A stretch of DNA of 3,063 nucleotides from a phage: sequence record PZ049712.1. One strand, 5' to 3'. The translations under genes were made by a program, and so were the position numbers. The notes beneath the pieces were generated by a model. It worked only from the letters and a program-made list of their open reading frames with translations. It was not told the DNA's origin and searched no databases. This document shows positions 1 to 3,063 of this stretch, piece after piece (position 1 is the first letter of the stretch; the number at the start of each line of letters is the position of its first letter).

Positions 1-1708
1 GCCGCACCGCCTCGATTCCAACCGTCGTGATGCGCCCTTGCAGTTGCTCGCGAACGATTAGCCGCACTGATCCGGCCATCAATTCGTCCCCCTGACGAGC
101 GCTGCCATCGAGTGCCTCCTTTATCAACTGATCCAGGGGTTGCCCCTTTTCCGCTGCCAGGTCGATACCGTAGGAATTCCACACATCTTCAACCTTGGTG
201 CTGCCCTTGAGCCGGAGTTCAAGGTTTGGCAGATCGGTTCTTGACGCTTCTACCGCCTGGGAAAAAACGCAGTCAACGAAAGGCTGATTGTTTGGCTTGA
301 GGACGACAAACAGATGATCACCGGCTTCAAGCCTGGTCGACCCTCGAGGCGGTATGACGGCCGACCCTCGCGTGATCATCGCCACGACTACGCCTTCGGG
401 CAACGCCATCTGCGAGAGCAAACGGCCGGCGGCTCTCGCATCGTTACCGAGCGTGTATTCGACGATTTCCGCGTCGACATCGTGCAGTGACGAGATTTCG
501 AGAGTCGCGGCGGGCGTCGCTGGTGGCTTCTCCGTCAGCCCCAGCTTGCGCGCGACGAGCGGGAGCGTAGAGCCCTGCACCGTCGCCGATAGCAGAACTA
601 CGAAGAACACAACATTGAAGATCAGGGGCGCATTAGGCAGTCCGAAAAGCAACGGGAAGATTGCCAGGATGATCGGCACCGAACCACGTAGGCCTACCCA
701 GGAAACGAGTGCCGTCTCCCTGAGATTGAAGCCAAAAAGCGCAAGCATTGGTGCGACGGCCAGCGGCCTGGCCAGCAACACCAGGACCAGTGCAATCACC
801 AACCCCTCGACCCACACATCGAGCAGCGAAACCGGATCGACGAGCAGGCCGAGGACTACGAACATGGTGATCTGGCTAAGCCATGCCAGGCCATCCATGA
901 ACAGGAAGGTGCTGCGCTGGAAAACGAATTTCTGGTTTCCGATCATCACGCCAGCGACGAAGATCGCCAGAAATCCGCTGCCGCCCAGATTCGCGGATAC
1001 TCCATAGGCGAGCAATCCGCCGGCCGCAACAAGCACCGGATACAAGCCGGTCGCGACCAGTTTTATCCTGCTCAGCAACCTGAGTATCGACCATCCGACA
1101 CCAAGCCCGACCAGCGCACCTATCCCCATCTGCATCAAAAACATCTGAAGCAGACCCCAGCCAAGCGGCATGCTGTTAACCAGCACCTCCAACAAGCCCA
1201 CCGTCAGAAAGATGGCCATGGGGTCGTTGGACGCGCTTTCAATCTCCAGCACCGACTTGAGCCGCTGATTGATGTGAATTCCGGCGTTTCGCAAGAGAGA
1301 AAATACGGCTGCAGCATCGGTCGAGCCGATGATCGCACCCAGCAACATGCCTTCCAGAACTGGAAGCTCAAGCATCCAGGCAGCTGCGAGCCCCGCGATT
1401 GCGGCCGTTGCGAGTACCCCAACTGTTGCCAGCAGAGACGCTGGCTTCCAAACCTTCCTTATGGACGAAACGGGCGTTTGCAGGCCGCCGTCAAAAAGGA
1501 TAAGCGCCAAAGCCAGGGTGCCGAGGGCATGCGCGGCAACGGCATTATCAAAAACGATCCCGCCGATACCGTTCTCACCTGCAAGCATGCCGGTGATCAG
1601 GAACAACACGAGCACCGGCAGCCCCAGACGGGCCGACAGTTTGCTGGAGAGCACACCGAACAGGATCAGTACTGCTGCCAGCAGCAATAGCTTGTCAATT
1701 GCAAACAC
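1..1708 (-). CDS. nhaP2: K+/H+ (monovalent cation:proton) antiporter, CPA1 family NhaP2/CvrA type, with C-terminal RCK_C (TrkA-C) domain; partial, 3' end beyond the window edge (569 codons present, no stop)
   Basis: Reverse-strand hand translation with codons starting at 1708, 1705, ... is open all the way to position 2. An in-frame TAA (plus 1718..1720) lies immediately upstream, so GTG at 1708..1706 is the first possible start. Product begins VFAIDKLLLLAAVLILFGVLSSKLSARLGLPVLVLFLITGMLAGENGIGGIVFDNAVAAHALGTLALALILFDGGLQTP, which closely parallels the E. coli NhaP2 N-terminus as I recall it. About 390 aa are hydrophobic multi-helix sequence (e.g. LIFNVVFFVVLLSATVQG), followed by a soluble segment LEISSLHDVDAEIVEYTLGNDARAAGRLLSQMALPEGVVVAMITRGSAVIPPRGSTRLEAGDHLFVVLKP typical of RCK_C. 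The plus-strand track ORFs here (354..1007, 1274..1690, 1329..1721) are Ser/Thr/Ala/Arg-rich antisense shadows. Family assignment is from memory, not a search. Confidence 0.85.
   Translation of the reverse strand, partial: MFAIDKLLLLAAVLILFGVLSSKLSARLGLPVLVLFLITGMLAGENGIGGIVFDNAVAAHALGTLALALILFDGGLQTPVSSIRKVWKPASLLATVGVLATAAIAGLAAAWMLELPVLEGMLLGAIIGSTDAAAVFSLLRNAGIHINQRLKSVLEIESASNDPMAIFLTVGLLEVLVNSMPLGWGLLQMFLMQMGIGALVGLGVGWSILRLLSRIKLVATGLYPVLVAAGGLLAYGVSANLGGSGFLAIFVAGVMIGNQKFVFQRSTFLFMDGLAWLSQITMFVVLGLLVDPVSLLDVWVEGLVIALVLVLLARPLAVAPMLALFGFNLRETALVSWVGLRGSVPIILAIFPLLFGLPNAPLIFNVVFFVVLLSATVQGSTLPLVARKLGLTEKPPATPAATLEISSLHDVDAEIVEYTLGNDARAAGRLLSQMALPEGVVVAMITRGSAVIPPRGSTRLEAGDHLFVVLKPNNQPFVDCVFSQAVEASRTDLPNLELRLKGSTKVEDVWNSYGIDLAAEKGQPLDQLIKEALDGSARQGDELMAGSVRLIVREQLQGRITTVGIEAVR
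270..510 (-). other. Segment of nhaP2 encoding the cytoplasmic RCK_C/TrkA-C regulatory domain (approx. residues 400-480)
   Basis: Translated residues about 400-480 (LEISSLHDVDAEIVEYTLGNDARAAGRLLSQMALPEGVVVAMITRGSAVIPPRGSTRLEAGDHLFVVLKPNNQ) follow the membrane domain and have the small mixed alpha/beta pattern of RCK_C domains, including the recurrent G-D-x-L-x-V motif context. Boundaries are approximate. Confidence 0.6.
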
Positions 1709-1908: not shown

Positions 1909-2400
1909 ATGGTCACCCTAGAGGTTCGACAATTGATCTTTGAGCAAGTCGTTTTATTGATTGCCACTGGTTTCGGGCTGGGGTCTTTACCCTGGGTGCC
2001 TGGAACCTTCGGATCACTGCTGGGGATACCACTGGCGTGGTGGCTCTGGGGGCAGGCGCTGACAAGGCAACTGCTGGTCATCACCGCGCTGCTGGCGGTC
2101 GGCGTTCCGCTGTGTCACTGGGCCTCGCGTTGGCTTGGAGGCGGTGATGCCGCGCAGATCGTTGCCGACGAGTACTTCGCCTTTCCACTGGTTTTTTTGG
2201 GAGTGGCCACAACCCATCGATGGTGGCTACTAGGTGCGGGATTCGCACTGTATAGGCTTTTCGATATCACCAAACCGCCCCCCATTGATTTCGTCGAAAC
2301 CATTGGTGGTGGCTTGGGTATCGTTTTTGATGACGTGCTGGCCGCGCTATTGGCTTGGCTCGTTCTGCGTGGGACACAAGCAGTTTGGAGACGCCCGTAG
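1909..2400 (+). CDS. pgpA: Phosphatidylglycerophosphatase A (PgpA), complete
   Basis: Track ORF 1909..2400 (163 aa). It carries PgpA family signatures: LLIATGFGLGSLPWVPGTFGSL (the G-x-G-x-x-P-x-x-P-G-T-x-G-S motif), QIVADEYFAFPL, FALYRLFDITKPPPIDF and GGGLGIVFDDVLAALLAWLVL, which parallel E. coli PgpA segments AVGFGSGLSPIVPGTMGSL, FVIFRILDMWKPWPI and HGGMGIMIDDIVAG (recalled from memory). Stop TAG at 2398..2400. The start is ambiguous between ATG 1909 (no obvious SD) and in-frame TTG 1933, which is preceded by GAGGT at 1921..1925. Confidence 0.88.
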   Translation: MVTLEVRQLIFEQVVLLIATGFGLGSLPWVPGTFGSLLGIPLAWWLWGQALTRQLLVITALLAVGVPLCHWASRWLGGGDAAQIVADEYFAFPLVFLGVATTHRWWLLGAGFALYRLFDITKPPPIDFVETIGGGLGIVFDDVLAALLAWLVLRGTQAVWRRP

Positions 2401-2588
2401 CTCCAGCTCAAAGTCACCCCTACCGACAGTGATTCTAGGCCCAGTCACTCCGCTGCTGTCTGAAACGTTGCATAGGCCAAGATGCTCTCGGCTACAGGTC
2501 GACACCTCGTGTGCTGCTTTCTAGGACGACCCACTGGTCGGCTGTCATGAAACAGGTCCAACCTGCATCAGGTCAGTGTATACCGGTA

Positions 2589-2605
2589 GCGGCCGGTCGG
2601 GCCGC
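2589..2605 (+). other. Stable all-GC hairpin (6-bp stem, 5-nt loop) in the presumed ORF3 leader, 10 nt upstream of the SD
   Basis: GCGGCC-GGTCG-GGCCGC: 2589..2594 pairs with 2600..2605 as six G:C pairs, loop 2595..2599. No T-tract follows (next bases aggctctctggag), so it is not a canonical rho-independent terminator. Confidence 0.35.
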
Positions 2606-2614
2606 AGGCTCTCT

Positions 2615-2618
2615 GGAG
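2615..2618 (+). promoter_or_regulatory. Shine-Dalgarno (GGAG) for ORF3, 6-nt spacer to ATG 2625
   Basis: Sequence ...ctctGGAGatttcgATGtcg; GGAG is at 2615..2618 and ATG at 2625..2627. Confidence 0.55.
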
Positions 2619-2624
2619 ATTTCG

Positions 2625-3063
2625 ATGTCGAAAAAGGCACTGACCCCGCCCTCTGCGGCCTTGCATTTCAATCCATTACGCGTGCAACTCGAACGGCTAC
2701 GTAACGAGATGACGAGCGACGCCTGCCTGGCATCGCTGAAAAATATCCAGGTTCATGAGTGCTACAGGCAAAGCGCCGAGAACCTGCTGCAGTACCTATG
2801 TCTTCGTCGCCATGACCTGCGCGAGTTACAAGCGCAGCTTGCCGAGATCGGTTTGTCGTCCTTGGGCCGCGCCGAGGCGGCAATACTCGCAGCTGTGACA
2901 TCGGTGATGGGCGTGTTGCAGCGGCTCGAAGAGCCGAATACCCAAGAGCCCAAGGCCCCTGAGCGTGGTCTCCACGAGGGTGAGCGTCTATTGGCGGCTC
3001 ACGCCGACGCGCTGTTTGGAAAGGCCCGTGGCACGCGCTCGATTCGAATCATGGTGACCCTTC
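2625..3063 (+). CDS. Hypothetical protein, 5' partial ORF (146 codons in window, runs off the right edge); uncharacterised N-terminal region ending in a pyruvate-kinase-like beta-strand motif (TRSIRIMVTL). Possible PK-family enzyme with an N-terminal extension; unconfirmed
   Basis: Open frame from ATG 2625 to the window end, absent from the track because it has no stop in the window. GGAG at 2615..2618 sits 6 nt before ATG 2625. Translation: MSKKALTPPSAALHFNPLRVQLERLRNEMTSDACLASLKNIQVHECYRQSAENLLQYLCLRRHDLRELQAQLAEIGLSSLGRAEAAILAAVTSVMGVLQRLEEPNTQEPKAPERGLHEGERLLAAHADALFGKARGTRSIRIMVTL. Codon third positions are GC-biased like the neighbouring genes. The antisense track ORFs 2668..2901 and 2762..2953 are Arg-rich shadows. 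The final RIMVTL resembles the KIVCTLGP strand that opens pyruvate kinase barrels, but that is only about 6 residues of similarity. An in-frame upstream ATG at 2547 has no SD and would add a low-complexity Ala/Gly-rich 26-aa extension. Confidence 0.6.
   Translation, partial: MSKKALTPPSAALHFNPLRVQLERLRNEMTSDACLASLKNIQVHECYRQSAENLLQYLCLRRHDLRELQAQLAEIGLSSLGRAEAAILAAVTSVMGVLQRLEEPNTQEPKAPERGLHEGERLLAAHADALFGKARGTRSIRIMVTL

Follow-up and report, generated by a model that had tools for sequence, protein, structure and literature searches.

The window analysed here, a stretch of 3,063 nt, matches Stutzerimonas (Pseudomonas) stutzeri A1501 (CP000304.1) at 100% identity, as it does several further assemblies. 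Two genes, encoding a Na+/H+ exchanger and the phosphatidylglycerophosphatase PgpA, are followed in the window by the 5' part of a pyruvate kinase (PK)-family gene, ORF3 (Table 1). The called start of ORF3, at position 10717 of the A1501 region surrounding the window (L001), corresponds to ATG 2625 of the window, and the orthologs start at the same position. An ATG at 2547 had been put forward in the earlier note as an alternative start, but this codon shares the frame of the gene in the allele group of the window alone. It is out of frame in ortholog L009 (whose leader is 2 nt longer), L010 and L011, lacks a Shine-Dalgarno sequence and would encode residues that are not conserved, and it was dismissed as a start codon. 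Because ORF3 starts at ATG 2625 and not at 2547, the spacer between pgpA and ORF3 comprises positions 2401-2624, i.e., 224 nt.

Table 1. Genes and sequence features of the 3,063-nt window, in window coordinates.
Feature	Position	Strand	Remarks
Na+/H+ exchanger with TrkA_C domain	2-1708	-	Divergent from pgpA
pgpA (phosphatidylglycerophosphatase A)	1909-2400	+	Pfam PF04608, E=1e-33; upstream neighbour of ORF3
Distal spacer, holding copy 1	2401-2518		Fast-evolving; except in the pgpA-PK alleles, PK orthologs have nothing clearly corresponding upstream
Copy 1, extended 5' to TTCTAGG	2433-2466	+	1-nt deletion (GTC-TGAAAC), no -10 partner; a non-conserved look-alike of the box
Copy 2, extended	2519-2553	+	97-100% identical in L087 and L214; homologous in all orthologs of at least 65.5% protein identity
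9-mer CCACTGGTC (CC-N5-TC)	2531-2539	+	CC and TC invariant in 9 lineages; ends 2 nt 5' of the box
Invariant box CTGTCATGAAAC	2542-2553	+	96.8% mean pairwise identity in 9 lineages; top PWM match in the window, 20.8 bits
Upstream ATG inside the box	2547-2549	+	Not a start codon
Spacer of 18 nt between the blocks	2554-2571	+	Length fixed (17 nt in L013), sequence free
GTCAGT, putative ECF-type -10	2572-2577	+	GTC..T invariant; variants GTCAGT, GTCTGT, GTCATT
GC-rich inverted repeat GCGGCC-ggtcg-GGCCGC	2589-2605	+	In the presumed 5' leader; kept in most orthologs, absent in L092
Shine-Dalgarno GGAG	2615-2618	+	6 nt 5' of ATG 2625; kept just before the start codon in all orthologs
ORF3, 5' part of a 625-aa PK-family gene	2625-3063	+	Pfam PF00224; leaves the window at its 3' end

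The antiporter gene and pgpA form a conserved module, and the pair is also present in three relatives (L215-L217; pgpA identity 82-86%) in which the PK gene is not found downstream of it. Given this occurrence of the module without the PK gene, the pgpA-PK junction is a secondary fusion of two units. In L215/L216 (3501-6267), a convergent phoX with tonB-exbBD lies downstream of the antiporter-pgpA pair in place of the PK gene. The A1501 region around the window (L001 1-20492) is rich in mobile elements, with IS21-type transposases, a group II intron reverse transcriptase and an integrase, and also encodes a TraI_2 relaxase, CusRS and CzcD/MerR. An identical PgpA protein was indexed in 915 blocks of assemblies, suggesting that the three genes of the window are part of a widely spread genomic island. 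The spacer matched nothing in the plasmid database (blastn in distant mode). The PK-family protein (window 2625-3063; L001 10717-12594) has an N-terminal stretch of approximately 170 aa without a Pfam match. PK-family proteins of similar length (613-689 aa among the matches listed) and 45-55% identity occur in Acidobacteriota, Chlorobi, Desulfobulbaceae, Dadabacteria and others, and Stutzerimonas species additionally carry a second PK-family paralog of about 54% identity. In S. stutzeri this uncharacterised and widely distributed PK-family gene (~620 aa) probably lies on a genomic island together with the antiporter-pgpA module.

The pgpA-ORF3 spacer holds an imperfect direct repeat, whose description in the earlier note proved correct: CACTCCGCTGCTGTCTGAAAC at 2446-2466 (copy 1) and CACTGGTCGGCTGTCATGAAAC at 2532-2553 (copy 2) are identical in 17 of 22 columns once a single 1-nt indel is allowed for, and both the heptamer CTGTCAT (2542-2548) and the ATG at 2547 were confirmed. 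The repeat is longer than first noted, extending over approximately 35 nt (2433-2466 versus 2519-2553), with copy 1 lying 86-87 nt upstream of copy 2. A repeat search aligned 2433-2460 with 2519-2546 (28 nt, 71% identity), with TTCTAGG beginning both copies and TGAAAC following the indel. In a Smith-Waterman self-alignment of the 224-nt spacer the repeat was the best local match, scoring 17 compared to 10.2 +/- 2.0 in dinucleotide shuffles, and this score was reached in 1% of 300 shuffles (p ~0.01). In the whole 3,063-nt window, 18 distinct direct self-alignments scored at least 17, with a top score of 22, and comparable two-copy families that are clearly due to chance were also listed by the repeat search of the window. 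The heptamer CTGTCAT itself was observed once, with 0.38 occurrences expected, and was present in 69 of 200 shuffles. The excess of the repeat over chance is weak and marginal. Within pgpA we also observed an 18-nt direct repeat (2211-2228 and 2297-2314, 83% identical) whose copies likewise lie 86 nt apart; this agreement is probably a coincidence.

We gathered PK orthologs from one genome per species and from metagenome assemblies, together with relatives of pgpA. Apart from the 100%-identical alleles, pgpA and the antiporter gene were found upstream of the PK gene only in L087 (PK 96% identical) and L214 (PK 97%, pgpA 93% identical). In the remaining orthologs pgpA was absent and another gene was located upstream each time, namely in L009 (93% PK protein identity), L012/L088 (83-84%), L010 (77%), L089 (73%), L011 (72%), L090 (70%), L091/L092 (67-68%) and L013 (66%). 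Despite these differing neighbours, approximately 110 nt 5' of the PK start, including the box of copy 2, were homologous in all these orthologs (93-66% identity).

Comparison of these regions, which the earlier note had proposed as a check on the conservation of both copies, set the two apart: copy 2 was kept, whereas copy 1 was not, even in the closest alleles sharing the gene order of the window. In L087, copy 1 was 72.7% and copy 2 100% identical to the window, compared to 82.5% for the distal spacer (2401-2518), 98.1% for the proximal spacer, 97.4% for the 3' end of pgpA and 96.6% for the PK coding region. The corresponding identities in L214 were 81% for copy 1, 95.5% for copy 2, 72.9% for the distal and 96.2% for the proximal spacer, with 93.1% for the whole pgpA coding sequence and 96.7% for the PK coding region. 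The 12-nt core of copy 1, GCTGTCTGAAAC in the window, carried three substitutions in both L087 and L214 (GCTATCTGCAGC), converting TGAAAC to TGCAGC, and read GCTGTGACCAGAAAC in L009 and GCTGCGGACAAAAAT in L012. No allele other than those 100% identical to the window had a TGAAAC at -164, and copy 1 was absent from the more distant orthologs. When the window was scanned with a position weight matrix (PWM) built from nine orthologous boxes, copy 2 ranked first (Table 1) and copy 1 scored -0.6 bits (rank 100 of 6104), which is at background because of its 1-nt deletion; moreover, no GTC was present 17-19 nt downstream of copy 1. Judged from these comparisons, the constraint acting on copy 2 does not extend to copy 1, which is an unconserved look-alike, and the repeat itself bears no evidence of function. 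The distal spacer in which copy 1 lies was weakly alignable to L009 and L012, and a search for it as the native 3' flank of pgpA in the relatives L215 and L217 revealed no convincing homology past the stop codon. Third codon positions of the PK gene were 97.9% identical to L087. Comparing the three pgpA-PK alleles, the distal spacer has diverged far more than its flanks (93-98% identical) and much faster than third codon positions of the flanking genes, for which either a recombination patch or local hypermutability may be responsible.

As to its origin, copy 1 may be what is left, after decay, of an old duplication of the sequence read below as a -35 region, or a chance resemblance, in either case without conserved function. 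A true tandem duplication, in which some 86 nt upstream of the PK gene were copied and the upstream unit has since decayed and is non-functional, is a reasonable possibility to which we would give somewhat less than even weight. Both copies start with TTCTAGG, and the self-alignment can be stretched to 2401-2466 versus 2485-2553, but the stretching gains no score (17 both ways). Copy 1 of L087 agrees with copy 2 at some positions (CGGCT) at which copy 1 of the window differs, as would fit independent decay, and L009 carries a copy-1-like GCTGTGACCAGAAACG at the aligned position, which hints that such a sequence may be old and that some past function is possible. Against this, self-similarity above chance was seen in the allele of the window only (p ~0.01), the spacers of L087, L214-like alleles, L009 and L012 being at shuffle level, and the 18 window-wide self-alignments score equally well. 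The local duplication named as an alternative in the earlier note may thus still account for copy 1, but it is indistinguishable from chance.

Copy 2, on the other hand, could be confirmed as a real conserved cis-element upstream of ORF3, since it is homologous in orthologs down to 65.5% identity notwithstanding other upstream genes. The element, which 11 lineages of down to 66% protein identity share irrespective of the upstream gene, reads CC-N5-TC-N3-(C/T)TGTCATGAAAC, 18 nt, GTC(A/T)(G/T)T, approximately 37 nt, GGAG, N5-8 and the start codon. Among nine lineages, the mean pairwise identity fell from the value given for the 12-nt box in Table 1 to 38.6% in the 18-nt spacer and rose again to 89.8% in the GTC..T block. 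The pattern GAAAC-N17/18-GTCWKT was found upstream of every ortholog of at least 65.5% identity, upstream of none of the approximately 70 orthologs of 65% or less, and nowhere else in about 0.9 Mb of fetched loci. In L013, CTGTC is replaced while ATGAAAC and GTCTGT are kept; the constrained core is therefore ATGAAAC...GTC and not the Pho-like heptamer. Copy 2 belongs to a promoter-like element that is conserved, had not been annotated before and is of a known kind.

These results bear directly on the proposal of the earlier note that the two copies, approximately eight helical turns apart, form an operator pair, possibly for PhoB, and make ORF3 expression dependent on conditions such as phosphate supply. 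The repeat does exist as the best local self-alignment of the spacer, and with a crude 18-bp Pho consensus copy 2 was the best site in the window (five mismatches) and copy 1 tied for second (six mismatches). Furthermore, copy 2 resembles a PhoB operator (CTGTCATAWAWCTGTCAY) in having the first half-site CTGTCAT (7/7) followed by an A-rich linker of 4 nt, and relatives of the pgpA module adjoin phoX. In contrast to a Pho box, the second half-site is missing: four of the five mismatches of the 18 positions fall there, leaving 3/7 matches in the window, and it varies freely with 2-4/7 mismatches in all 10 lineages. There is no direct-repeat period of 11 bp either, the nearest upstream GTC-containing repeat being 7-8 nt off, and no conserved TAnnnT was found at the position, approximately 10 bp downstream, at which a Pho box needs a sigma-70 -10. 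Sites with up to five mismatches are expected 0.42 times per window, with such a site in a third of random windows, and those with up to six 2.9 times. L013 retains the element after losing half-site 1, and phoX is a neighbour only where the PK gene is absent. The Pho box at copy 2 was hence rejected and, with copy 1 changed in L087 and L214, absent from all other orthologs and at PWM background, we regard an operator pair as highly improbable.

We consider it fairly probable that the copies are not a functional pair, copy 2 being part of an extracytoplasmic function (ECF)-type promoter and copy 1 a relic or chance resemblance. Copy 2 would provide the upstream half of a promoter for the PK-family gene, with the element lying approximately 47 nt before the GGAG and ATG at 2625; an alternative sigma factor of the ECF (group IV) type would use GAAAC (2549-2553) as its -35 and GTCAGT as its -10. 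The predicted transcription start is then near 2583-2586, with a leader of approximately 40 nt, and the conserved CC-N5-TC 9-mer just 5' of the box may be an activator site. What we read as a promoter signature is that two invariant blocks keep their distance although the sequence between them is free; that the element is a promoter, and its sigma class and start site, are deduced from sequence conservation. The -35 elements of group IV sigma factors carry an AAC motif with an upstream G (PMC1540707), and both are found in GAAAC at 2549-2553, which is invariant in 11 lineages, with a conserved -10 (GTC..T) following after a constant interval of about 16-17 nt, the spacer being free in sequence (38.6% identity). 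A scan for sigma-70-like promoters found none in the spacer region, in which no conserved sigma-70 hexamers occur at usable positions, and the only terminator-like site found by a terminator scan (1839-1825, minus strand) lies outside the spacer.

Among known systems, the element is most readily compared to promoters of AlgU/sigma-E (RpoE) of Pseudomonas and E. coli (-35 GGAACTT), which likewise consist of two blocks across a free spacer. The AlgU consensus is GAACTT-N16/17-TCTNN (PMC7641640), and the algU promoter of A1501 has the -10 GGGTCTAT (PMC9141998). The spacing fits, as the AAC-aligned distance from C to TC is 19 nt here (18 nt in L013), equal to N17 (N16), and the -10, GTCAGT/GTCTGT (TCAGT/TCTGT when set against TCTNN), is of the same (G)TC(T/A) type. 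The -35 differs: GAAAC followed by variable bases matches GGAACTT/GAACTT at 4/7 positions, agreeing only at the upstream G and AAC. It lacks the TT tract, and conservation here reaches upstream into TGTCAT and not downstream into TT. The ECF factor sigma-W of Bacillus subtilis recognises promoters of the form TGAAAC-N16-CGTA. Its -35 is identical to the TGAAAC found here, whereas the -10 is GTCAGT and not CGTA, the spacer is 18 and not 16 nt, and the host is a gammaproteobacterium; we take the sigma-W resemblance as a lead only. No literature on a Pseudomonas ECF consensus with a TGAAAC -35 was found, and the SigX consensus was reported to be undefined.

Metagenome contigs were scanned with TGTCATGAAAC-N18-GTCWKT in search of a regulon or of a sigma gene under its own control. 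The scan gave 80 loci, which were chance matches, mostly on low-GC contigs and many inside long open frames, L147 alone being the island itself. No regulon thus backs the promoter model, and no cognate sigma gene was found. Should the ECF-type reading be true, the box would help to track down both the sigma factor and the stress signal controlling the PK-family enzyme. A speculative PhoB operator pair is replaced by a testable promoter model for an uncharacterised PK-family gene, although the impact is limited. A more far-reaching version, which we offer as speculation and think improbable, is that an ECF sigma factor not yet assigned (or AlgU with an AlgR-like activator) controls the atypical long PK-family enzyme in Stutzerimonas, with CC-N5-TC-N3-CTGTCATGAAAC-N18-GTCAGT as its signature promoter, and that copy 1, as a half-decayed second -35, still weakly binds the factor and modulates expression in the island allele.

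One feature speaks against a promoter as the whole explanation: the invariant TGTCAT extends 6 nt upstream of GAAAC, beyond the needs of a -35 alone, and the box may therefore be read by a transcription factor instead of a sigma factor. A transcription-factor site overlapping or replacing the -35 is the main rival to the ECF promoter reading, albeit one that we find rather doubtful. Here the box of copy 2 would be bound by an activator or repressor, the promoter proper would lie elsewhere or overlap it, and copy 1 would still be non-functional; the CC-N5-TC 9-mer might be read by a LytTR regulator resembling AlgR, or TGTCATGAAAC by another factor. The invariant stretch of 11 nt, together with the conserved CC and TC preceding it, indeed exceeds a typical -35, and on direct reading the box is nearly palindromic around CATG, TGTCATGAAA being its own reverse complement at 8/10 positions. 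What a single operator would not lead one to expect is the GTC..T block at a fixed 18 nt across a free spacer, which is the arrangement of a two-block promoter, and conserved sigma-70 hexamers are absent from suitable positions. The 9-mer just upstream of the box agrees with the AlgR binding-site consensus CCGTTCGTC at 5-8/9 positions (PMC4787818), 6/9 in the window, but this resemblance mostly amounts to the four invariant bases that coincide with the consensus, the central positions of the 9-mer being variable. We therefore treat the AlgR-like 9-mer as a possible lead only.

Other known binding sites were considered and rejected, since their required second parts were absent or not conserved: on direct reading, a sigma-54 site (TGGCAC-N5-TTGC) for copy 1 and a LexA site (CTGT-N8-ACAG) for copy 2, and, on comparison with their consensus sequences, sigma-32 and FleQ.

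Alternatively, the conserved block might act at the RNA level, through a 5'-UTR structure or riboswitch or through a short upstream open reading frame (uORF) beginning at ATG 2547. The invariance of ATGAAAC and the retention of the GC hairpin at 2589-2605 in most orthologs would suit such a role. Nevertheless, there was no Rfam match at E <= 10, folding of the spacer was no better than that of shuffles (z = 0.08), and RNAalifold predicted 0-4 weak pairs in the leader or the whole conserved region, while a uORF from 2547 would lack a Shine-Dalgarno sequence and have neither frame, length nor residues conserved. An RNA-level function is accordingly a very remote prospect, and an ECF-type promoter remains our preferred reading of copy 2.

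The second-best match to the box PWM in the window was CTGGCATGAAATCG at 1864-1877 on the minus strand (14.6 bits), in the divergent spacer between the antiporter gene and pgpA. It forms inverted repeat I9 with copy 2, has the opposite orientation, lacks a GTC at N17-19 and is followed on the minus strand by the terminator-like hairpin with a T-run (1839-1825), upstream of the antiporter start. Among the more distant PK orthologs, no upstream TGTCAT was found besides those of L014 and L015 (56% identical), where it occurs within (C/T)TGTCATCC(G/A)GACTTTGACTG, 33 nt upstream of the start of the PK ortholog; this position (-33) differs from that of copy 2, and GAAAC is absent. The orthologs of the Pseudomonas oryzihabitans group (L026, L031, L033, L037, L039 and L041) carry another conserved block, CTGGCAACACTTGGCTTTTCAC, approximately 100 nt upstream of the PK gene, which resembles a sigma-54 -24/-12 element but has the spacing GG-N9-GC, one base short of GG-N10-GC.
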